From the NCBI GenBank assembly GCA_963674695.2, contig CAXXGI010000002.1, positions 704,001 to 768,000 on the forward strand: a stretch of DNA of 64,000 nucleotides. The letters run 5' to 3'. The position numbers and the translations under genes were made by a program. The stretch comes from a bacterium. Its GTDB lineage: Bacteria; UBA10199; 2-02-FULL-44-16; JAAZCA01. The notes under the pieces were generated by a model. The model did no database searches and was not told the DNA's origin. It worked only from the letters and a program-made list of their open reading frames with translations. Shown in pieces: positions 1 through 57,964 of the stretch; positions within the stretch are counted from its first letter, which is position 1; each line of letters starts with the position of its first letter.

Positions 1-1701
1 AAAGCTCGTGTAGAAAGGGTTTGAGACTCCATCCTACACAAAGGAAAGGAACTTCCCTATGATCAGACCTCTACGCCAAAGCCTCCTTCCGTTCAAGTGT
101 GAAATGATGGATCGCGACGATACGCTCACCGGATTCGGTGGTCTGCCCCTACTGCACGAGATGATGCTCGCCCTGGAGCTGCCTCGATTCGTACGCCGTA
201 CGCTCAAGCTGAAGGGGAAGGGCTGGGAGGAGTGGCGACTCCTCGAAGCGCTTATCGTCATGACCGTTGCAGGTGGGGAGCATATGGGCGATATAGCGAT
301 GCTGAAAAGCGACGGGGCCTATCATCGTTTGATCGGTAACGAGGGGATGCCCGGCCCCAAGGCCGTCGAGCGGTTCTTGAAGCGCTTTCACGATCAAGCG
401 CTCGTCGATGAGCGCCCTTTGTTTCCTCGCTCGTGGGTGCCAAAGGAGACGAAAGCGCTTCAATCGTTGGGGAAGATCGATCGCCATATTGCCCGCAAGC
501 TCATCGAGCGGAGCGGACTGGCCACCGTAACGATCGAAAACGATGCCACCGTCGTTACAAGTCACAAGGATGGTGCGCTGGCAACGTACAAGGGCGGCGT
601 TGGCTACCTCCCCGTCATCGGCACGATCGCAGAGCTGGGGATCGTCATCGCCGACGAGTTTCGAGACGGAAACGTTGCCCCTGCACACGATGTCCTGGGC
701 TTCTTCAAGCGCTGTTTCTCGGTGATTCCCAAGGGCATGCACCATATCCGCACACGGCTGGACGGAGCATATTACGATCACGACCTCATCGATTTCCTTG
801 GGCGCGAGAAGATCTCATTCACGATCACCGGGGAGAAGCGCGCCGGGATCCTGGACTGGATCGAGAGGATACCTGATCAGGAATGGAAGCCGCTCACGAA
901 GATTACTGAGCAAGGCTCCGTCCCCACTGGGCGCGAGTGGACCGAGATCGACTGGGTGAGTGCAAACGGATCGCAGGAGCAGATGCGGGATAGGACGTAT
1001 CGCTATCTCGTCACCAGAAAGACAGCGGATCAGTGGGAGCTGTTTCAGGAGGAGGCCGCAGGAGAGGTCGTACGCAAGGAACGCTATGAGCTCATAGTCA
1101 CCAACATGAAGTGGGAGGGCGATCGCCTCATCCGGTGGCACCACGAACGGGGTGGGACGATCGAACACGTCAACAAGCAGATCAAGAGCGATCTCGCCGG
1201 TGGAACGCTTCCCTGTGCCGAATTCGGCGCCAACGCCGCATGGTGGAGGATCCAGTGCATCGCTCAGAATCTTGTGCAGGCACTCCAACTGCACGCCCTG
1301 CCCGAGGAGCTCTCAACCTGCCGACTCAAGAAGCTGCGGCTCTGGCTCTTCTGCATCGCCGGACGCGTCATCAAGACTGGACGGCAGATCATCATCAAAC
1401 TCCGTCACGGACATCCGTCGTTTGAGATCTATCGAGATGCCAGGCGACTCATCGCGAATATGGCTGGGACGTGAGGGCACAGGAAGAACGCGAGAGAAGG
1501 GAAAAAGAGAAGAACAGAAACCGTCGATGGGGTGCGTTCGTAATGTGGCATGAGATATCCTCAGACGGCGGTGAAGACGACAAGACGGAGAAAACATCTC
1601 CGCGCGGCGCTGTTTTCGACGAGATCCAGCCGCCATTTTAAAAAAACAGGCCGGATAATGGTGTGAAGTTAATGCCAATTTTGATGTGTCGGATTTGGGG
1701 G
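1..1701 (+). mobile_element. IS1380-family insertion sequence (left end probably outside the window)
   Basis: Transposase plus ~225 bp 3' region ending GTCGGATTTGGGG(G) near 1700, resembling an IS1380 right end. Boundary is approximate because the left inverted repeat is not visible. Confidence 0.6.
59..1474 (+). CDS. IS1380-family DDE transposase
   Basis: 471 aa. N-terminal GGLPLL, DDE-like motifs (IENDATV, RLDGAYY, RGGTIEHVNKQIK), FGANAAW and C-terminal LRLWLFCIAGRVIKTGRQIIIKL typical of IS1380 transposases. Confidence 0.9.
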   Translation: MIRPLRQSLLPFKCEMMDRDDTLTGFGGLPLLHEMMLALELPRFVRRTLKLKGKGWEEWRLLEALIVMTVAGGEHMGDIAMLKSDGAYHRLIGNEGMPGPKAVERFLKRFHDQALVDERPLFPRSWVPKETKALQSLGKIDRHIARKLIERSGLATVTIENDATVVTSHKDGALATYKGGVGYLPVIGTIAELGIVIADEFRDGNVAPAHDVLGFFKRCFSVIPKGMHHIRTRLDGAYYDHDLIDFLGREKISFTITGEKRAGILDWIERIPDQEWKPLTKITEQGSVPTGREWTEIDWVSANGSQEQMRDRTYRYLVTRKTADQWELFQEEAAGEVVRKERYELIVTNMKWEGDRLIRWHHERGGTIEHVNKQIKSDLAGGTLPCAEFGANAAWWRIQCIAQNLVQALQLHALPEELSTCRLKKLRLWLFCIAGRVIKTGRQIIIKLRHGHPSFEIYRDARRLIANMAGT

Positions 1702-1788: not shown

Positions 1789-2691
1789 ATGGCAGGTCCA
1801 GTCAAGTGTCCGAACGATATGTGCCCGATCCCGGCGGGGACGTTCAAAATGGGATCGACGAACGGCGATCCGGACGAACAGCCGGTTCGCGAGATCGAGC
1901 TCTCGGCATATAAGATGATGAAGCACCCCGTGACCGTGCGCGAGTACAGGGCCTATCTGGCCGAGAAGGGCGAGGGCGATCGCTTCAAAGCCCTCATCAA
2001 GGGTTGTGGGGCGGATGCCAAGTGGCGGACCGTCGAAAATAAAAAGGGACAAGGGAAGGTGAAGACCCGAAAGGATGCCGCCGGGCTTTTGCGAGGAAAA
2101 ATCGATGGGAAGAAGGTGTGCGAGGCCAAGATCGAAACCATCACCCCCGCCTCCATGCTCAAATTGGACGAGGGGTTCGACGGCGACGATCAGCCGATGG
2201 TCGAGGTGAGTTGGCCTGAGGCCGATGCCTACTGCAAATTCTACGGCATGGAGCTCCCCTCGGAGGCACAGTGGGAACGGGGTGCAAGAGACCTTGCCGG
2301 TGACAAGGAGTATGGGACATCGAGCGGGACGAGGGCGCGTTTGAGCAAGGAGGCGCATGTCAGTGCGAGGGAGACTGCGCCGGTCTGCTCCTATGCGGAA
2401 AACGAAATTGGCCTCTGTGACATGGCCGGCCAGGTGTGGGAATGGACGCGAGATGTGTACCAGGATAGTTATGAGGGGTTGAGTTCAAAAGATCCTTGTA
2501 ACAATCCGCCCCTTCCTGAATCTCAAAAGGATAAGCCCGACAAACGCAATAGGGTCCTCCGCGGCGGTTCCTGGTACTTCCTCAATCCGAGGTTCTTGCG
2601 TGCGGCGTATCGTTACGACTTCCTCCCCGCCGTTGGCTACTGCAATGTTGGGTTTCGGTGTGTGGCGGCCCCGCAGGACTCCAAAAAGTGA
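1789..2691 (+). CDS. DGR target protein, FGE-sulfatase (CLec-fold) domain
   Basis: RBS AGGAGG upstream. Motifs IPAGTFKMGS, PVTVREY, PMVEVSWPEADAYC, LPSEAQWE, GLCDMAGQVWEW, RVLRGGSW...NVGFRC. 3' end carries the VR. Confidence 0.93.
   Translation: MAGPVKCPNDMCPIPAGTFKMGSTNGDPDEQPVREIELSAYKMMKHPVTVREYRAYLAEKGEGDRFKALIKGCGADAKWRTVENKKGQGKVKTRKDAAGLLRGKIDGKKVCEAKIETITPASMLKLDEGFDGDDQPMVEVSWPEADAYCKFYGMELPSEAQWERGARDLAGDKEYGTSSGTRARLSKEAHVSARETAPVCSYAENEIGLCDMAGQVWEWTRDVYQDSYEGLSSKDPCNNPPLPESQKDKPDKRNRVLRGGSWYFLNPRFLRAAYRYDFLPAVGYCNVGFRCVAAPQDSKK
2552..2676 (+). repeat. DGR variable repeat (VR)
   Basis: 125-bp ungapped match to 4161-4285 with 20 mismatches, each opposite an A in the TR. Confidence 0.97.
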
Positions 2692-2720
2692 TGTAGACTT
2701 TTATTCTTTTGTTTTTTACC

Positions 2721-2755
2721 CTCGCCCCGTCCTTTCGTAGAAAGGACGGGGCGAG
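2721..2755. other. Perfect hairpin/cruciform downstream of VR/IMH (DGR target-recognition element; may also terminate transcription)
   Basis: CTCGCCCCGTCCTTTC-GTA-GAAAGGACGGGGCGAG: 16-bp stem, 3-nt loop, 30 bp after the target stop codon. Confidence 0.85.
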
Positions 2756-2759
2756 TTTT

Positions 2760-2909
2760 ATGATGACAGCCAACCCTCAAATCATCGCCAGGATGTATGA
2801 TCTACTGCTCTACCTCATTCCGCAGGTCTCCAAATTTCCACGAACTGAACTGGAAGCAGTTTTTCCCTCCCCCTTGATGGGGGAGGGTCAGGGTGGGGGT
2901 GGCCTTTGA
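2760..2909 (+). pseudogene. avd: Truncated Avd (DGR accessory variability determinant), N-terminal ~30 aa only
   Basis: MMTANPQIIARMYDLLLYLIPQVSKFPRTE resembles the first helix of Avd (I..K.YDL..W..P....FPR). Similarity ends near 2850 where a REP-like hairpin begins. Expected position between target and RT. Confidence 0.75.
2861..2902. repeat. REP-like hairpin, left flank of DUF559 cassette
   Basis: CCCTCCCCC-TTGAT-GGGGGAGGG (9-bp stem) plus G-rich tail; imperfect inverted copy at 3238-3279. Confidence 0.75.
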
Positions 2910-3286
2910 AGAAACTCGTATCCCTCTCAAGAAACTTGAGGACGAACGCTACGGATACGGAGAAATTCCTATGGCAGCGCCTCAAGGGGAAGCAATTGAC
3001 CGGTTTTAAGTTCCGGAGGCAGGCACCCATCGGAAGGTACGTCGTGGACTTTGTTTGCTTTGAGAAGCGCGTTATCATCGAATGCGACGGCGGCCAGCAC
3101 GCCGATCAAGTCGAAAAAGACCAGCGGCGGGATTCCTGGTTTGCCCAACAGGGATACCGCGTTCTGAGATTCTGGGATAACGACGTTCTCAAAAATGTTG
3201 AGGGAGTTCTGGAGACGATTCTCGACGCCTGTCAGGGTCACCCTCCCTCCGACTCCCTCCCATCAAGGGAGGGAGAAAAGAGTTAG
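2906..3286 (+). CDS. DUF559 / Vsr-like endonuclease
   Basis: [66 protein letters not shown] are characteristic of DUF559. TTG start overlaps the avd' TGA stop. Confidence 0.92.
3238..3279. repeat. REP-like hairpin, right flank of DUF559 cassette
   Basis: CTCCCTCCC-ATCAA-GGGAGGGAG (9-bp stem). Its loop is the reverse complement of the left-flank loop. Confidence 0.75.
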
Positions 3287-3288
3287 AC

Positions 3289-4148
3289 AGCGCTGCCCCG
3301 TATCGCGACCGTGTGGTCCACCACGCTATACACAACATTCTCGAGCCGATCTTCGATCCGACGTTCATCCACGATTCCTATGCCACACGAAAGGAAAAGG
3401 GAACGCATGCAGCCATCGACCGCTTTCAGGAGTTCGCGCGAAAGAATCGTTACGCGTTGAAATGCGATGTGAAGCAGTATTTCCCGAGTATCCGGCACGA
3501 CATTCTGCTCGACTTGATCAAGCGAAAGGTCGGATGTTGCGCAACGATTCGGCTGATCGAAAAGATCTTGAATTCGCACGACGCCATGGCCAGTTTCTTG
3601 CATCCATCCATCCATCCATCCATCCATCCATCCATCCATCCATCCATCCATCCATCCATCCAGTAGGAATCCCTATTGGAAATCTGACTTCACAGTTCTT
3701 CGCAAATGTCTATCTCAACGGGTTGGATCATTTCGTCAAAGAACAGTTGAAGTGCCGATGTTATCTTCGGTATATGGATGATTTTGTCCTCTTCCACCGG
3801 GACAAACAGTTCTTGTGGACAGCCAGGGGGGCGATTCAGGAATATCTTGAGGGTCTGCATCTCTCCATGCATGAGGGGAAGTGTCGGGTTTTCAAGACGG
3901 CAACGGGCGTCCCTTTTCTCGGTATGGTCGTTTTCCCTCACTGTCGTCGATTGAAGAGGGGGAATGTCATCCGATTTAAGAGGAGGTTGAAGCGTTTTCA
4001 GCAATCGTATGGGAAGGGAACCATCGAATGGTTGCATATCAGGCAATCCATTCGATCTTGGATCGGTCATGCCTCTCATGCCGATACGGCAAGATTGAGA
4101 GAATATTTATTGGAGGATGTGGTCTTCCAGCGAAAGGAGGGTGATTGA
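3289..4148 (+). pseudogene. DGR reverse transcriptase, 5'-truncated and frameshifted at a (CATC)n tract
   Basis: Frame A (3289-3666): [43 protein letters not shown]. Frame B (to 4148): [41 protein letters not shown]. The LTSQ motif is DGR-type. Confidence 0.9.
3601..3662 (+). repeat. Perfect tetranucleotide microsatellite (CATC)15 inside RT
   Basis: 60 bp of exact CATC repeats plus CA, directly before the [11 protein letters not shown] codons. Confidence 0.97.
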
Positions 4149-4160
4149 TCGAAACGGAGT

Positions 4161-4285
4161 GGGTCCTCCGCGGCGGTTCCTGGAACAACAACAATCCGAG
4201 GAACTTGCGTGCGGCGAATCGTAACAACAACCACCCCGCCAATAGCAACAACAATATTGGGTTTCGGTGTGTGGCGGCCCCGCAG
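4161..4285 (+). ncRNA. DGR template repeat (TR)
   Basis: AAC/AAT-rich copy of VR (13 AAY codons, 31 adenines) starting 12 bp after the RT stop. Diverges from VR at CAG|C versus CAG|G (IMH*/IMH boundary). Confidence 0.96.
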
Positions 4286-4310
4286 CACTCCCTGATTCGG
4301 AGTCAAAGGT

Positions 4311-4357
4311 TTCAAATCGGAGTCCCGGATTTTACGAAATCCGGGGGCGAGTTTGAA
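4311..4357 (+). other. Structured 3' spacer of DGR RNA
   Basis: CCCGGATTT-TACG-AAATCCGGG hairpin (4324-4345, UNCG-type loop) enclosed by TTCAAA...TTTGAA. Confidence 0.55.
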
Positions 4358-4909
4358 GGGAGTCCAGATCGATCGCCCTGGTTTGCTGTGTGATGCGGCG
4401 AACCGAAGATCGCATGGCCCCACCCGGCCCTCGTACCGGTGCATTGCCGTTGACGCGGCGCTTGTCCGCCAACGCCTTGTGGCGGGAGCGGGACGGGTGG
4501 GGATTTTTATTGTGCTTTGGCGACCATTACTCTTTTCATTCCCGTCTTCACGCGTTTTGGCGTCATCGGTGTCTGTGAAGAGCCGCCGGTTCCTGGTTTG
4601 TCATATATGGACTGCCCTCCTGCCTGCCACGGCCTTCTTCCCGGAGGAGCCTAAAAGCGCGTTTGCGAGACCGACCGTATGAGTCGTGAAAATGCCGACT
4701 GGTTTCGTGCGTTCGGGGCTGACGAAGGAAGACACGAACGCACGGTGTTGAAACCAGCGGCATTTTCGCGGCGAGTAGGGAGGCGAGCGCGCTCGAGCGG
4801 CGAAGGGAAGGAGGTCGTGGCAGGCAGTCTCGCTTGACTCGTGCTCTCGCCGTTGACTTCGGATCGGCTTCTGGTAGTTTCGGTGTCTCACTGCCACCGG
4901 GAGGGACGC

Positions 4910-6776: not shown

Positions 6777-6954
6777 GGCGCTCCAAAGGAGCGCCCCAGA
6801 GTGATGACAAACTCCCCCCTCCTTTGTAAGGAGGGGATGGGGGAGGTAGATCACGGATCTACCCCACCCTAACCCTCCCCTTACAAAGGGGAGGGAACGA
6901 AAAGATCATCACATTGGATTTTGTCAGCAGTCTGAGGCGCTCCTTTGGAGTGCC
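6777..6954. repeat. Nested palindromic intergenic element (REPIN/MITE-like)
   Basis: Outer GGCGCTCCAAAGGAGCGCC / GGCGCTCCTTTGGAGTGCC and CAGAGTGATGACAAA / TTTGTCAGCAGTCTG inverted pairs enclose two inverted CCCTCC..GGAGGG hairpins (6812-6896). Confidence 0.7.
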
Positions 6955-19020: not shown

Positions 19021-19623
19021 TCATGCCGGTACAATCGATTCCCATTTCATCTCAGCGGCCCGCATCTCCGGGTGCGAGGCGATCAGGTGCCAGATGACCG
19101 CTTGAAAGGCCTCGGTGTGCGGCGTGACCGTGTCGGCTGAGACCGTCGGGACGACGACGCAGGCATCGGCGACCTTTGCGGTATAGCCACCGTCGCGGCC
19201 GACGATTCCCATCACCTTCGCGCCCACGCCCTGGGCATATGTGAGCGCCTCGACGAGATTCGCGCTGACGTTGCGCTGTGCGTCCCCTCCGCCGACGGAG
19301 AAGACGAAGACGGCGTCCTTGCCGCTCAGACGGCTGCCTTCGAGCCAGGCGGCGAAGACGGTCGCCCACCCCTCGTCGTTGGTGCGCGCGGTCAGCTCCG
19401 CGACGTTGTCGCACGGTGTGTACGCTTCGATGTGCGCGATCTTGCGAAAGTCGCCGACCGCGTGTGAGGCGTGCGCTGCCCCTCCGCCGACGCCGATGCA
19501 GAAGAGGCGTCCATCGCGTGCGCGCAGGTCGATGAGCGCGGCGACCATTCGGCTGATGGCATCGGCGTCGATCGTCTTGGCGATGGTCGCGGTTTCATCC
19601 AGATAGCGTTTGACGTAGTCCAT
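19021..19623 (-). CDS. SIS-domain phosphoheptose isomerase-like protein
   Basis: GVGGGAAHASH, DNVAELTARTND, FSVGGG, TPHTEAFQ. Confidence 0.88.
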   Translation of the reverse strand: MDYVKRYLDETATIAKTIDADAISRMVAALIDLRARDGRLFCIGVGGGAAHASHAVGDFRKIAHIEAYTPCDNVAELTARTNDEGWATVFAAWLEGSRLSGKDAVFVFSVGGGDAQRNVSANLVEALTYAQGVGAKVMGIVGRDGGYTAKVADACVVVPTVSADTVTPHTEAFQAVIWHLIASHPEMRAAEMKWESIVPA

Positions 19624-19629
19624 GGCTTA

Positions 19630-19886
19630 TCCTTTTTCGAGTTGGTCGATGAGGGCGAGCGCTTCAGTAAGCGTCGCAGCACGATGGTCCGGTTTGAGCT
19701 CACGAATGTACCATGTTTTTCCTCAACGTAAAAAACAAAAAAGCTCGCGTCCCCTGCGCCGGAGATCTTGCCGTCGAGCGCCCCAGCGCGTTTGGCCTCT
19801 TCGTAGATCTCGGGGGGTGTTATCTTGGTTGACCAGCATGAAATCATGGCGGTCGAGATCAGGAACTTCAAATGCATTGACCTCAT
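19630..19886 (-). pseudogene. C-terminal remnant of a GHMP sugar kinase
   Basis: EIYEEAKRAGALDGKISGAGDASFFVFY matches the GHMP C-terminal GA.GGK..GAGGGG motif. No full-length ORF. Confidence 0.6.
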
Positions 19887-24083: not shown

Positions 24084-25562
24084 ATGTCGTTGCGGATGAC
24101 ACGAGTGCAGGCTGCATGTTGGATCACCGGTGTTTCGGTCGTTGTCGCCGGGCTCGTCATCTGGTGCTGGCGCGGCATCTACAATCACGATGAGGTGCAG
24201 CATCTGCATGCCGCTTGGCTCATCTGGCAGGGGCTCCATCCCTTTGCCGATTTCGTAGAGCAGCATCACCCCACGCTCTGGTATCTGCTGGCACCGCTTG
24301 CCGGTTCGATATCCTCGCCGCACCGGATCATCTTCGCGGCGCGCCTCTTCGATCTGGCCATGATCTCCGTGCTGGCCATCAGCGTGTTGCGCATCGCCCG
24401 GCGGCTCTATCCCACAACGTGGGGCTTTTGGCCGGTGGTAGTTCTCATGGGTTCGTCGCTCTTTCTGCAAAAACAGCTCGAGGTGCGCCCCGATGCGCTG
24501 ATGAACGTGATCGGTTTTGCCGGCATCGCCCTCTGGCTCTCGGCGCTCGCGAAGGGCAGTCGCGTCCAGGCCTTCCTCGCCGGCCTGCTCTCGGGGTTGG
24601 CCATCGCGGTCCTGCAAAAGTGGATGCCGATCGTCGTCCTTTTGGTTCTGGGTTCACTTCTGTCGATATTGCTGCCGTGCGATGCGCGCGGTCGTCGACG
24701 AAATCTGATCGACCTGACGCTCTTCATCCTGGGTGCGATCATTCCCGTTGGCACGCTCATAGCGGCCGCTTTCCTCGCCGGATGGGGAGAGGAATTTTTG
24801 TTTTGGAATTACACCTTCAACCGCTTCCTCTTCCTTCGGGAGAGCGCCATGGAGCGTATTCCGCTCTGGATTCCGTTTCTCAACTTGGCCCGCGATTCCG
24901 GCGGACTTGTCCTGCTGGGTCTGGCCGGGCTGGGGGTGATGGCGAGGGGATGGGGTCGTCGCCATGACGCGGACGATGCGATTGTTCGCGCGCGTCTGGT
25001 GGTGATCGTCCTCACGGTCGGCAGCGTTTTCTTCCTGCTGGGCAACCGCAATCTCTACTCGCAGTACTTTCTGCCGTGGCTCGTGTTGCTGGCGATCTGT
25101 TCGCAGGCTCTGTTCGCGCGTTTTTCCGGCGGGCGCGAGGGGCGACTCCTGAGGGGAGGAGCGATTGCGCTGGTCGCCATCGCCGCTGTCCTGCTCTCCA
25201 TGCGCAATACCAATGAACACCAGATCGCGGCGCATCGCTTCATCTTGAACGGGACGCGAGCCGATCGACCCGTGGCCATCTCGCCGCCGATGCACCCCAT
25301 CGTGCGGTTCGATACCCCGTACTTTTGGTACAACGGCCAGATGCTCGCCGGTCTCTATGCCGAATACTGCCGCACCAACGCCTGTGCACACGATTTTCTT
25401 GCGATCGAGGATAAACGCTGGGAGGAGATGCCGCCCGACCTGCTCTATCTGGCGGTCTTCCCGACGCGTATGCGCTTCTGGCCCTATCGCTGGCAGGAGC
25501 GACTCGAGGCCTATCGCCCCCTGAATGCCCCCGGTTTCTTCGTGCCGAAAGCGGATGAGTGA
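24084..25562 (+). CDS. GT-C (ArnT/PMT-like) membrane glycosyltransferase
   Basis: Polytopic. NHDEVQHLH, EQHHP, EVRPD. Paralog of 27236-28771. Confidence 0.8.
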   Translation: MSLRMTRVQAACWITGVSVVVAGLVIWCWRGIYNHDEVQHLHAAWLIWQGLHPFADFVEQHHPTLWYLLAPLAGSISSPHRIIFAARLFDLAMISVLAISVLRIARRLYPTTWGFWPVVVLMGSSLFLQKQLEVRPDALMNVIGFAGIALWLSALAKGSRVQAFLAGLLSGLAIAVLQKWMPIVVLLVLGSLLSILLPCDARGRRRNLIDLTLFILGAIIPVGTLIAAAFLAGWGEEFLFWNYTFNRFLFLRESAMERIPLWIPFLNLARDSGGLVLLGLAGLGVMARGWGRRHDADDAIVRARLVVIVLTVGSVFFLLGNRNLYSQYFLPWLVLLAICSQALFARFSGGREGRLLRGGAIALVAIAAVLLSMRNTNEHQIAAHRFILNGTRADRPVAISPPMHPIVRFDTPYFWYNGQMLAGLYAEYCRTNACAHDFLAIEDKRWEEMPPDLLYLAVFPTRMRFWPYRWQERLEAYRPLNAPGFFVPKADE

Positions 25563-25566
25563 GGGA

Positions 25567-27153
25567 TTACCGCTCGATGGCGCAGACGTCCTGCCCGTTT
25601 TCCCTGCGCACATGTCGCCGATGACAGGAGATGACGAACGGGCCCATGTGGCCGAAGAGCCTGTAGTCCTTCCGGAGCAGATCGCCCAGCGTGATGCGAA
25701 GCGCAGGGGGAATGAAACCGTTGAAGCTGTGCTTGGGCATGTCGATGAAGACGTCCGGCGGGTCGGTATACATCCCCGACAGAAAACGCTCGATGCGCTT
25801 TGCGCGCGCTTTCGGTTCTCCGAAGAGCAACGGATTAAAATAGAAGAATGGACTCGGACTGTTTCGTTTTGAATGATAGTAGAGCCCGGTCTCGTCGTTG
25901 AAGGCCAGGATCGTGAGCCCATCGCGCAGGTTCTCCCCGAGAAAGGTGCCGACCGCCTTGCTGATCGGAAAGAGGTTGTTGCCGTACTTCTGTCGCGAGA
26001 GCGTGTTCGGCGGGGTCGTGAGAAACGCGATGTTGCCGATGAGCAGCGGGACGCCGATGATGAGTGCGAGGAGGAGGGCAATGAATCGCGGACGCAAACG
26101 GAGTGCGCGCACGCCGCTTGCGCGCGTCACCATTTCGGTCAACGCCCAGGTGGCCGTCAGGATCAGGAACGGGACGAGGAGTTGATAATAGTGGGGGAAG
26201 AAACGCCAGGGCGCAGCCACCTCCATCGCGGCGGCCAGGAGGAGAATCACGAGGACGAGTTTTTTGCGTCGATGTTCGGGAAAGAGGAGCGTGAGGAGGA
26301 AGACGCCGGTGAGCCATATCAGCGGCCGCTCCCAGGCCATCTCCGGCGGGAGGAGGGCTTGCCCGATGGGGACGGTGCTGACGGGGTTATTGAAGGCATA
26401 CATTCGGTTGAAGATGAAGACCGCTTCCCAGAAGGGAACGAGGGCGCCGGCATGCCAGAGGCCGATCAGGAGCACGCCCCAGGTGGCGGCGGCGGCCAGG
26501 CCGAAGAGGCCCACGCCCCCGATGCGCTCGCGAATGCTTCGGATCGATGGCGTGGGCAGGGTCAGTAGGATGAAGGCCAGTCCCATCCACGTGAAGATCG
26601 TCATCATCTTGATGGTCGAGCTCACACCGATGAGGAGTCCGGCCAGCACCAGGAGTTCCCACCGTCGCCGCCCGATGCCTTCGCGCGCGCGCAGCAGCGC
26701 GAAGATCCCCATCAGCTTGAAGGCGTTGATGAGCAGTTCGCCGTCGGGTTGGTTCATCTGGAGCATCGCATCCTGAGCGATGAGCCCATAGAGCGCCATA
26801 GCGACGAGCGCGGGCACGCCTCCGATGAGCTCTCGCGCGATCAGCCCGATGCCGATCAGGACGATCCCGTTGAAGACGACGCCCAGCATGAAGATGGCCC
26901 AATCGGTATAGCCGAAGAGAAGCTGAAAGGCGCCGAAGATCGCGGGCGTGGTCGGCGGCTTATGGTCCCAGACATCGATGTAGGCGCGTTTCCCCTCGAT
27001 GAGTTGGTGGGCCATGTAGGAGAAGCCGGTGATGTCGCGTTCGAAGGGTTCGTGGAGCGTGTGTAGACGCGCGAGCGCCATGCCGGCCAGGATTACGAGG
27101 GCGACGATCACAAACGTCGTGCGAGAGGTGAGGGTGAGTGTCTTTGTCGGCAT
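25567..27153 (-). CDS. GT-C (ArnT/PMT-like) membrane glycosyltransferase
   Basis: Polytopic. ERD, YIDVWDHKPP, FFPHYY. Confidence 0.8.
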   Translation of the reverse strand: MPTKTLTLTSRTTFVIVALVILAGMALARLHTLHEPFERDITGFSYMAHQLIEGKRAYIDVWDHKPPTTPAIFGAFQLLFGYTDWAIFMLGVVFNGIVLIGIGLIARELIGGVPALVAMALYGLIAQDAMLQMNQPDGELLINAFKLMGIFALLRAREGIGRRRWELLVLAGLLIGVSSTIKMMTIFTWMGLAFILLTLPTPSIRSIRERIGGVGLFGLAAAATWGVLLIGLWHAGALVPFWEAVFIFNRMYAFNNPVSTVPIGQALLPPEMAWERPLIWLTGVFLLTLLFPEHRRKKLVLVILLLAAAMEVAAPWRFFPHYYQLLVPFLILTATWALTEMVTRASGVRALRLRPRFIALLLALIIGVPLLIGNIAFLTTPPNTLSRQKYGNNLFPISKAVGTFLGENLRDGLTILAFNDETGLYYHSKRNSPSPFFYFNPLLFGEPKARAKRIERFLSGMYTDPPDVFIDMPKHSFNGFIPPALRITLGDLLRKDYRLFGHMGPFVISCHRRHVRRENGQDVCAIER

Positions 27154-56442: not shown

Positions 56443-57792
56443 ATGGCTGAACAGAATCTGCTCATCGTCAACGCCTGTCTCATCACCGGTCGCGGGCCGG
56501 TCTTTCCCGACGGATTCGTCCACATCAGCGGTTCGCGCATCGCAGCCCTCGGGCCGATGTCGCGCTGTCCGAAACATGGCGCCATGCAGGTCATCGATGC
56601 GCATGACCGCTTTGTCCTCCCCGGTTTCATCAATCCCCACATGCATCTCTATGGGGCGCTCGCCTGCGGGATGGAGCTGCCGCGCATGCGCCACTTTGGA
56701 AAGGTCCTCAAGGATCTCTGGTGGCGGCTCGATGCCGCACTCGAGCTCGAGGACATCTTCGTGAGCGCGATGCTCGGCGGTGTCGCCGCCATTCGCGCGG
56801 GCGTGACCACCCTCATCGATCACCATGCCAGCTACGGCGCGATCAGCGGCTCGCTGGGGGCCATCTCCGAGGCGTTGGGCGAGCTGGGGCTTCGCGCCAA
56901 CCTCTGTTTCGAGATCTCCGATCGTGCCGGGAAGGGAAGTCGCGACGAGGCGCTCGCCGAAACCGGGCTGTGGCTCGAGAGCGTGCGCAACTGGCTTGCC
57001 GAGGAGCCGCAGTTTCTCCAGCGCGGCATGGTGGGGCTGCACGCCTCGATGACCGTTTCCGATGCCACCTGTGACGCTGCACGCGAACTCATGGATCTCT
57101 TCGATGTCGGCGCACACGTCCATGTCGCCGAGGCGATGGAGGATGTCGCGGCGACGAAGAAGAAGTATCGCCAGCGCCCCGTTGCGCGCCTCTTCAAACA
57201 GGGGCTTCTGCGCCCGGAATCGATCGCCGTCCACTGCGTGCATGTGGATGCAAACGATATTCGCCTGCTCGCCAAGAGTGCGGCGACGGTGGTGCACAAC
57301 CCGCTCTCCAATCTGAATAACGCCGTGGGTGTGGCGCCAGTCCCAGAGATGATGCAGCGGAAGATTCCCATCGTCATCGGTACCGATGGCATGAGTGCCG
57401 GCGTGCAGGACGATCTGCGGGTGGCTTCGGTCTTGCATCGCCCGGGGGCAAAGGATGCCCAGGCCGGTTGGAGCGAGGTTGGCCACGCGCTCTTCGAAAA
57501 CGCGCCCTCGCTCGTCTCGCGCCAGTTCGGTTTCGAGGTGGGAACGCTGGGAAAGAATGCCGCGGCCGATCTCATCATTGCCGATGCTCGGCCCGCAACC
57601 CCCGTGACGAAGGCAAATGTCTTGGCGCACGTTCTCTTCCGTGTGATGACCGCCCCCGTGCGCACAACGATCGTCGCGGGCAGGGTGCTCATGCAGGATT
57701 TTGAAATCCCGGGTCTGGACGAAGAGCGCCTCGCGCGCGACGCACAGAGATGTGCGAAGAAACTGTGGAAACGGATGAAGATGGTTCGATAG
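56443..57792 (+). CDS. ssnA: SsnA-like amidohydrolase
   Basis: PGFINPHMHLY, LWWRLD, TTLIDHHAS, GLHAS.T, HVHVAE, HNP.SNLNNAVG, GTDG. Confidence 0.8.
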   Translation: MAEQNLLIVNACLITGRGPVFPDGFVHISGSRIAALGPMSRCPKHGAMQVIDAHDRFVLPGFINPHMHLYGALACGMELPRMRHFGKVLKDLWWRLDAALELEDIFVSAMLGGVAAIRAGVTTLIDHHASYGAISGSLGAISEALGELGLRANLCFEISDRAGKGSRDEALAETGLWLESVRNWLAEEPQFLQRGMVGLHASMTVSDATCDAARELMDLFDVGAHVHVAEAMEDVAATKKKYRQRPVARLFKQGLLRPESIAVHCVHVDANDIRLLAKSAATVVHNPLSNLNNAVGVAPVPEMMQRKIPIVIGTDGMSAGVQDDLRVASVLHRPGAKDAQAGWSEVGHALFENAPSLVSRQFGFEVGTLGKNAAADLIIADARPATPVTKANVLAHVLFRVMTAPVRTTIVAGRVLMQDFEIPGLDEERLARDAQRCAKKLWKRMKMVR

Positions 57793-57964
57793 TTCGATAG
57801 TTCGATAGTTCGATAGTTCGATAGTTCGATAGTTCGATAGTTCGATAGTTCGATAGTTCGATAGTTCGATAGTTCGATAGTTCGATAGTTCGATAGTTCG
57901 ATAGTTCGATAGTTCGATAGTTCGATAGTTCGATAGTTCGATAGTTCGATAGTTCGATAGTTCG
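57784..57964 (+). repeat. Perfect octamer tandem repeat (GTTCGATA)22
   Basis: 22 exact units plus GTTCG. The ssnA stop codon lies at the first unit junction. Confidence 0.97.

Follow-up and report, generated by a model that had tools for sequence, protein, structure and literature searches.

The 64,000-nt stretch of DNA analysed here (the window; positions 704,001 to 768,000 of contig CAXXGI010000002.1, assembly GCA_963674695.2) carries at positions 1789-4291 a diversity-generating retroelement (DGR), and the local element is a dead remnant. Its gene order is target-avd-RT-TR, RT being the reverse transcriptase and TR the template repeat, and the RT is divided into two halves by a long tetranucleotide tract. 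The original prediction had proposed that this tract turns the RT into a contingency locus, which would switch a mutator on and off. The features on which the assignment to a DGR and the split of the RT rest are the following:

1789..2691, plus strand: DGR target gene, FGE-sulfatase / C-type-lectin fold (Pfam FGE-sulfatase, E 6.1e-52)
2552-2682: variable repeat (VR), within the last 45 codons of the target gene, found as a repeat match to the TR
3289..3600, plus strand, frame 1: N-terminal part of the RT, equivalent to positions 16-108 of the RVT_1 profile and beginning at residue 76 of full-length relatives
3601..3662, plus strand: (CATC)15.5 simple sequence repeat (SSR), the frameshift site (Tandem Repeats Finder; 62 nt by scripted count)
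3663..4148, plus strand, frame 0: C-terminal part of the RT with motif 4, YMDD and thumb, equivalent to RVT_1 positions 118-204 and open to the normal stop
4161..4291, plus strand: TR, rich in AAC codons, recognized by its repeat pairing with the VR

The TR and the VR differ at 21 of 131 nt, and 20 of these mismatches are at TR adenines, which is the signature of DGRs; the VR lies at the 3' end of a target gene with a lectin / FGE-sulfatase fold, as in other DGRs. The local TR has a single match in the whole genome, and no second VR was found there. The C-terminal part of the RT contains motif 4 in its DGR-type form (I/LGxxxSQ) as well as the YxDD motif, and is 62-75% identical to the RTs of relatives, while the local gene as a whole is broken and truncated.

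Tandem Repeats Finder described the tract at 3601-3662 as having a period of 4, 15.5 copies and 100% matches, with a score of 124, in agreement with the exact CATC units that had been reported between the RT halves and that can be counted in the raw sequence. It separates the two halves directly 5' of motif 4 (GIPIGN), and accordingly the Pfam profile RVT_1 matched two stretches, 3280-3600 (profile positions 16-108) and 3663-4148 (profile positions 118-204). The upstream frame (3313..3666, frame 1) terminates with ...HPSIHPSIQ* at a stop codon at 3664-3666, and the translations of the open reading frames (ORFs) bear out that YMDD is in another frame. The downstream half needs a shift of +1 mod 3, so that 16, 13, 10 or 7 units (n mod 3 = 1) would fuse the halves; the proposed fusion at 13 or 16 units thus follows directly from the sequence, and it agrees with natural in-frame HPSI alleles of relatives. 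In the whole genome (3.03 Mb, three contigs) this is the sole tetranucleotide tract of at least seven units, the runner-up being (TCCT)6, and the pattern (CATC)5 does not occur elsewhere. The tract is far beyond chance.

The repeat site in related reverse transcriptases

Relatives of the RT were sought by DNA similarity, with a profile of the C-terminal half across the whole phylum, and in genome and metagenome contig collections. The phylum consists of a single class with 93 species genomes, 14 of which carry this RT, in 17 copies; the search at the phylum level returned the same 93 genomes as that at the class level and added no loci. The repeat site could be read at the DNA level in 20 distinct RT copies of the clade, a sample that is biased towards 5' truncations by the use of the C-terminal half as the query. 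A non-triplet repeat of at least four units was present in 15 of the 20 copies, preceded by a conserved TTG(CA) and followed immediately by the sequence for GIPIGN. The motifs at the site were CATC, CAGC, CAAT, CAGT, TCAC, CAGA and the 8-mer CATCACTC, and the number of units ranged from 4 to 15.5. Like the local tract with its 100% matches, the repeats of the 14 further copies have a unit that is not divisible by 3 and lie perfect within the coding region. The states of the site were as follows (number of units in brackets):

CATC: G000, the genome of the window (15.5); G054b (8.5)
CAGC: G001 (9.5); G038 (10.5); G086 (8.75); G063 (4); mgL102 (13.5); G082 (at least 5, the contig ends in the tract)
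CCAG: G005 (7.75)
CAAT: G085a (12)
CAGT: mgL101 (11)
TCAC: G085b (8); mgL165 (13)
(CATC)2(CAGA)4: G092
8-mer CATCACTC: G015 (4.6)
Remnant of 2 units: G070
Repeat-free: G011; G084; mgL103
Site deleted: G054a (also seen as L104 and L271), with a deletion that ends exactly at the repeat site

In the genome collection only close relatives carry the repeat. All four of its loci with at least 66% identity do so, none of its 76 more distant loci has a non-triplet repeat of at least 12 nt at the site, and none of 80 viral RT loci has a repeat there, which gives no sign that the RT clade might be phage-borne. In a maximum-likelihood tree all repeat-bearing RTs fall into one clade (support 100/99), with the three repeat-free copies nested inside. 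The survey of homologous RTs for SSRs at this loop, which had been suggested as a check, has thus turned up repeats in most of the related copies. It should be noted that the RT of G086 (L274) has YQDD instead of YMDD in addition to its out-of-frame (CAGC)8.75 tract, and that contig C1 of G011 contains two intact, repeat-free RT copies (19264-19734 and 25173-25643) about 5.9 kb apart with identical scores, which may represent a duplicated DGR.

The recurrence of the repeat also bears on the possibility that the tract is an artefact of assembly or sequencing. Public short-read (de Bruijn, Logan) contigs from three runs of one study, none of which is recorded as RNA, end near position 3590 and begin again near 3671 and thus break at the tract, which makes unit counts from assemblies less certain than ordinary sequence. 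Nevertheless, these contigs run into the tract where expected on either side, a tetranucleotide tract is not what errors typically produce, and the repeat recurs at this site in 15 separate RT copies, which come from independent assemblies. An artefact was rejected on these grounds, and its probability appears to be negligible.

The loop that contains the repeat is variable in length also outside the clade. An alignment of 24 DGR RTs, in which this segment ranges from a few residues to nearly 30, agrees with the earlier statement that the loop differs in length among these enzymes. Modelling of the in-frame protein, another suggested check, was carried out with the natural in-frame RT of G005. 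The AlphaFold model had a mean predicted local distance difference test score (pLDDT) of 87.1 and a predicted template modelling score (pTM) of 0.83, and its sole internal stretch with a pLDDT below 50 comprises residues 176-184, the repeat peptide. The best match among solved structures was the Bordetella DGR RT 8ub7_A, with template modelling (TM) scores of 0.84/0.89, and the sequence of 8ub7_A has a gap of 16 residues opposite the G005 repeat peptide. On the evidence of the model and the alignments, the loop tolerates an insert encoded by the repeat.

Frame states and the case for a switch

The frame state could be assessed in 14 of the 15 repeat-bearing copies. Three of them are in frame (G005, mgL102 and G092) and 11 are out of frame, of which six belong to shift class 2 and five to shift class 1. 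The presence of both shift classes fits random slippage and speaks against a single programmed recoding event. In at least six out-of-frame relatives (G001, G038, G015, G085a, G085b and G086) both halves are open and there is no other stop, so that in-frame and out-of-frame alleles of an otherwise intact gene, as expected of a contingency locus, exist side by side in the clade. Variation in tract length between unchanged flanks was found in one pair only, which does not include the allele of the window: over an alignment of 1822 nt at 97.75% identity, G085b (8 TCAC units) and mgL165 (13 units) have 21 mismatches, and the single gap between them corresponds to the difference in unit number. In addition, a search of 5.8 billion predicted proteins retrieved full-length in-frame members of the clade in which the repeat is encoded as a peptide:

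HPSI (from the CATC motif): P0003 (344 aa), P0025, P0027
ASQP/QPAS/PASQ: P0001, P0023
PTDR: P0009

These results also argue against recoding, that is, the view that ribosomal frameshifting or transcriptional slippage on the repeat still yields a full-length RT, so that the gene would not really be interrupted. Polymerase slippage can be favoured by repetitive tracts, and this general capacity is all that speaks for such a mechanism, as direct support was not found. One programmed shift cannot rescue both of the shift classes (6 and 5 alleles), which is why programmed frameshifting was rejected, and in-frame alleles exist. Furthermore, there is no conserved slippery heptamer or stimulator, because the repeat motifs differ between relatives. 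Recoding thus appears extremely improbable.

The out-of-frame relatives also retain traces of mutagenesis. Mismatches between TR and VR are at TR adenines in 15 of 17 cases in G001, 16 of 17 in G038, 17 of 19 in G085a, 16 of 17 in G063, 21 of 22 in G085b and 19 of 23 in G015. The near confinement of the differences to TR adenines indicates that the cassettes were active in those lineages. The RT halves are, moreover, under purifying constraint: in pairs from the clade the proportion of nonsynonymous differences (pN) was 0.12-0.33, whereas that of synonymous differences (pS) was at least 0.69 and thus saturated, and the ratio of the corresponding rates (dN/dS) was 0.06-0.17 where computable, including pairs with both members out of frame.

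Taken together, it is probable in our judgement that a slipped-strand frameshift switch acts on the DGR RT throughout this clade and that the window holds a fossil copy of it. A hypermutable non-triplet repeat would be kept at a fixed RT site in the DGR clade of one small phylum of uncultured bacteria, namely in a surface loop directly 5' of RT motif 4 (GIPIGN). Slipped-strand mispairing would add or remove units, each unit would change the register between the N-terminal half and the catalytic C-terminal half (motif 4, YMDD, thumb) by one base, and every third tract length alone would give a full-length RT. Populations would consist mostly of 'off' cells, with a minority of 'on' cells running adenine mutagenesis of the lectin-fold target. 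Comparison of sequences suggests that switching could be frequent and reversible in living populations, and that the switch may have been selected as a regulator. For the more far-reaching claim, that a contingency repeat has been kept in the whole DGR clade through turnover of its motif, that hypermutation is phase-variable with an SSR gating the DGR, and that this arrangement has been selected as such, we regard the chances as evenly balanced. The idea of a contingency locus that switches a mutator is supported for the RT clade, with its site-specific repeats, varied unit numbers, both frame states and intact halves, and fails for the very genome on which it was based, which has lost RT codons 1-75 and most of avd.

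Several observations weigh against this interpretation. The in-frame share of 3/14 (2/13 without G092) is not above the 1/3 that would result from random drift of the tract length (P(<=2/13) = 0.14), and thus the frame states give no sign of selection for the 'on' state. Consensus unit counts in metagenome-assembled genomes may mask heterogeneity or be slightly off; the unit numbers come from assemblies alone, contigs break at the tract, and it is from such numbers that we infer switching within populations. The DGRs of the clade often decay, and if selection on the RT is weak, a slippery tract might survive even though it regulates nothing. At least five different truncations or fusion junctions at the 5' side of avd-RT were found (G000, L103, L104/G054a, G054b and G092), a number that is favoured by the search with the C-terminal half; in L103, L104/L271 (G054a), L277 (G054b) and L269 (G092) independent deletions join the 5' part of avd to the RT at residues ~62, 191 or 110, or cut the RT at ~66. 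In the estimates of constraint, the Nei-Gojobori script gave pS >1 in some pairs, and such values are taken to mean no more than 'saturated'.

Some of these points lead to the view that the tract is a non-adaptive slippage hotspot, which arose once in an insertion-tolerant loop and has been kept homogeneous by slippage under weak or intermittent selection, and that the out-of-frame alleles are early pseudogenes. The tract would still toggle the frame mechanically, and it is only the evolved switch that this view denies. It is favoured by the in-frame share, which does not exceed the random one third, by the frequency of irreversible avd-RT deletions (G000, G003, L103, L104/G054a, G054b and G092), by the decayed 2-unit remnant of G070, which is locked out of frame, and by the deletion of L104/G054a with its end exactly at the repeat site. 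However, the tract has been kept perfect through several motif replacements while synonymous sites became saturated and pN stayed at 0.12-0.33, and a second lesion is missing from at least six of the out-of-frame genes. Furthermore, a tract that was a liability under purifying selection should be broken by synonymous changes, and no interrupted long tract was seen. We consider a non-adaptive hotspot unlikely, although it is the main alternative.

If a selected switch is indeed present, it would bear on the question of how DGR mutagenesis is controlled. Once a receptor has reached a good variant, a mutator that goes on acting on this working protein becomes a cost. With a slipped-strand switch in the RT, control would be simple and genetic; it would need no regulator protein and would allow a population to hedge between 'frozen' and 'diversifying' cells, with most cells keeping the frozen receptor and a stochastic minority diversifying it. 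Contingency loci, known mostly from host-adapted pathogens, would thereby be extended to environmental bacteria and to a diversity-generating gene. For genome surveys the implication is that repeat-split DGR RTs should not be scored as dead or as sequencing errors, since potentially active DGRs would otherwise be undercounted.

Decay of the local cassette

In the window, the 3' part of avd and the 5' part of the RT have been replaced by a DUF559 gene that is flanked by GC-rich palindromes:

2760..2860, plus strand: 5' fragment of avd, approximately the first 30 codons (MMTANPQIIARMYDLLLYLIPQVSKFPR...), found by tblastn and ORF translation; the junction is also present in G003
2861..2904: GC-rich palindromic element resembling repetitive extragenic palindromes (REP-like), the left arm of the cassette, an inverted repeat with 3236-3279
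2906..3286, plus strand: DUF559 gene, Vsr-like endonuclease fold (Pfam DUF559, E 5.4e-43), in the place of the avd 3' and RT 5' parts
3236..3279: REP-like element, the right arm of the cassette, overlapping the DUF559 3' end, recognized as an inverted repeat; nearly identical in G003

Homology to the RT starts exactly at 3289, which is residue 76 of full-length relatives (alignment and tblastn), and the fused local frame has no start codon before the GTG at 3313. The approximately 75 lost N-terminal residues include the EPK-R-I stretch, which is conserved in all full-length relatives. When a full-length RT of a relative was compared with the whole genome by tblastn, residues 76-350 matched only at this locus and residues 1-75 matched nowhere in it. 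Likewise, residues 1-46 of the Avd of an intact relative matched only at 2709-2849, and the rest of the protein, from residue 47, has no counterpart anywhere in the genome, the Avd proteins of relatives having lengths of 103-134 aa. Marker genes put the completeness of the genome at 100%, and RVT_1 has no match in it beyond the two local pieces. Neither a complete avd nor a complete translatable RT is thus present, the latter lacking residues 1-75 and being broken in frame at the repeat. Complementation by a second RT or avd elsewhere in the genome was considered and rejected, since neither the RVT_1 profile nor tblastn found one.

These losses are decisive for the possibility that the local switch is live and that a tract of 13 or 16 units would make the RT of this genome functional again and start hypermutation. 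In its favour, the frame arithmetic holds, neither RT piece contains a stop or shows a visible excess of divergence compared with the sister G001, and the TR/VR pair is intact, with differences at adenines. However, the fused frame would begin at residue 76, with no start before GTG 3313 and with about 75 residues including EPK-R-I lost, avd is cut after about 30 codons, and the 100%-complete genome has no other RVT_1 gene or piece of avd. A live local switch is thus very improbable. Because RT codons 1-75 and the 3' part of avd are gone and no second RT or avd piece exists in the genome, the local cassette is dead; the switch is a fossil here, no repeat number is expected to restore activity, and the VR would be frozen. 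Both the missing N-terminus and the caveat that the locus may be dead regardless of the repeat number had been foreseen, and the genome-wide absence of RT codons 1-75 and of most of avd shows that the caveat was well founded.

The state of the RT remnant does not fit smoothly with an old inactivation, and this speaks against the fossil reading. The remnant is stop-free in both halves and no more diverged than the RT of the intact sister G001, and this conflicts with the avd/DUF559 junction, which is shared with another genus and seems to be older than the split of the genera. The 5' part of the RT may have been lost more recently than avd.

The junctions of the DUF559 gene are real, because they are covered without a single difference by a short-read contig (2500-3590) of a public run, although this run may be the source sample and is hence not independent evidence. 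G003 (L015), which belongs to another genus (g4) of the same family, has the same junction of avd fragment, palindrome and DUF559, and its cassette runs almost directly into the TR, the whole RT being gone. Between G000 and G003 the REP-like elements have diverged far less than the coding DNA around them; such elements (CCCTCCC..GGGAGGG) have dozens of 84-100% matches in relatives, the depth of metagenome contigs shows a spike at 2835-2901, and a further pair of GC-rich palindromic elements lies at 6815-6897. The predicted protein P0027 from another assembly begins with a palindrome-like peptide that is joined to ISAAPYRDR, one codon from the junction of the window. G003 and P0027 suggest that a DUF559 cassette may recurrently replace the avd-RT junction of DGRs. 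A multi-copy mobile element within the present genome was rejected, since it contains a single DUF559 gene and one exact copy of the left palindrome arm. The cassette of the window shows a reversible route of silencing (the repeat frameshift) and an irreversible one (the DUF559 replacement of avd-RT) side by side.

Two further features lie next to the target gene:

59..1474, plus strand: insertion sequence (IS)-type DDE transposase gene (Pfam DDE_Tnp_1_4, E 1.2e-37), directly upstream of the DGR target gene
2721..2755: perfect hairpin of 16 bp with a 3-nt loop, followed by TTTT (inverted repeat, 100% complementary), adjoining the 3' side of the target gene and VR

The hairpin could be a terminator or a DGR target(-recognition) hairpin. 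About 145 nt on the 3' side of the TR (4292-4435) are kept in relatives, with DNA matches extending to 4435, and this segment may be a structured 3' part of the DGR RNA. The genomic context of the DGR differs among relatives, which suggests that the locus is mobile. A paralogue of the target gene with 68% DNA identity lies on contig C2 of the genome (648396-649312), about 57 kb upstream of the window, and has no TR match. Independently of the DGR, the genome is rich in long perfect tandem arrays with units of 7, 8 and 9 nt (190 arrays at the thresholds used). Most of them are heptamers related to GTTCACG / ACTCGTG; examples are (GATAGTTC)23 at positions 57780-57964 of the window and (GTTCACC)23, (GTTCACC)22 and (ACGGTGA)21 elsewhere.

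Comparison with known systems

A full-text literature search found no published link between DGR RTs and simple sequence repeats or phase variation, although the supplements of surveys could list RT defects, and the earlier impression that the arrangement had not been described is in line with this result. Frameshifted DGR RTs as such have been reported. The DiGReF study of Schillinger et al. 2012 (PMC3521204) contains DGRs with an intact TR/VR pair whose RT has been interrupted by a transposon or disabled by a nonsense mutation or frameshift, and the DUF559 replacement in the window is the same kind of decay. In the available part of that source such RTs are regarded as isolated inactivations or as possible errors of sequencing, with no mention of a repeat tract, a conserved site or reversible switching, and the terms 'microsatellite' and 'tandem repeat' have no occurrences in PMC3521204. 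As far as the accessible part of PMC5758913 goes, indels in TR/VR are mentioned, including frameshift-causing indels in the TR/VR mutation patterns of its Supplementary Data 6.

Another known system for comparison is the DGR of the Bordetella phage BPP-1, with its complex of bRT, Avd and RNA (PDB 8ub7 and related entries). The G005 model superposes on bRT with TM scores of 0.84/0.89 at 35% identity, and both systems have motif 4 of the form IGxxxSQ, YMDD, an Avd partner, adenine-specific differences between TR and VR, and a lectin-fold target. The order target-avd-RT-TR sets the present clade apart from BPP-1, and in place of the 8-20 residues that the repeat encodes in this clade, the loop of bRT is minimal (VLPDEGVGIPIG).

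The closest parallel in mechanism is found elsewhere. The lic genes, lgtC and the mod methyltransferases of phasevarions are examples of contingency loci, with motifs such as CAAT, AGCC, AGTC and GACA. In the SSR contingency loci of Haemophilus influenzae and Neisseria, according to the parts of PMC2651432 and PMC5909438 that were available, gain or loss of units by slipped-strand mispairing shifts the frame of the ORF. The RT clade shares with them a perfect non-triplet repeat inside an ORF and a tract length that differs between close strains. As with mod, where the gated enzyme has many downstream effects and one repeat controls a whole programme, a single tract in the RT would govern more than its own gene. 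In contrast to those loci, the repeat lies in the middle of the gene, between RT motifs 3 and 4, rather than close to the 5' end, it occurs in uncultured bacteria of the environment and not in host-adapted pathogens, and the switching is deduced here from sequence alone. Moreover, what is gated is a DGR RT, and thus targeted hypermutation instead of a surface structure or methylation. The mechanism is therefore that of the tetranucleotide contingency loci, and it is the gated gene, a DGR RT, that is new.

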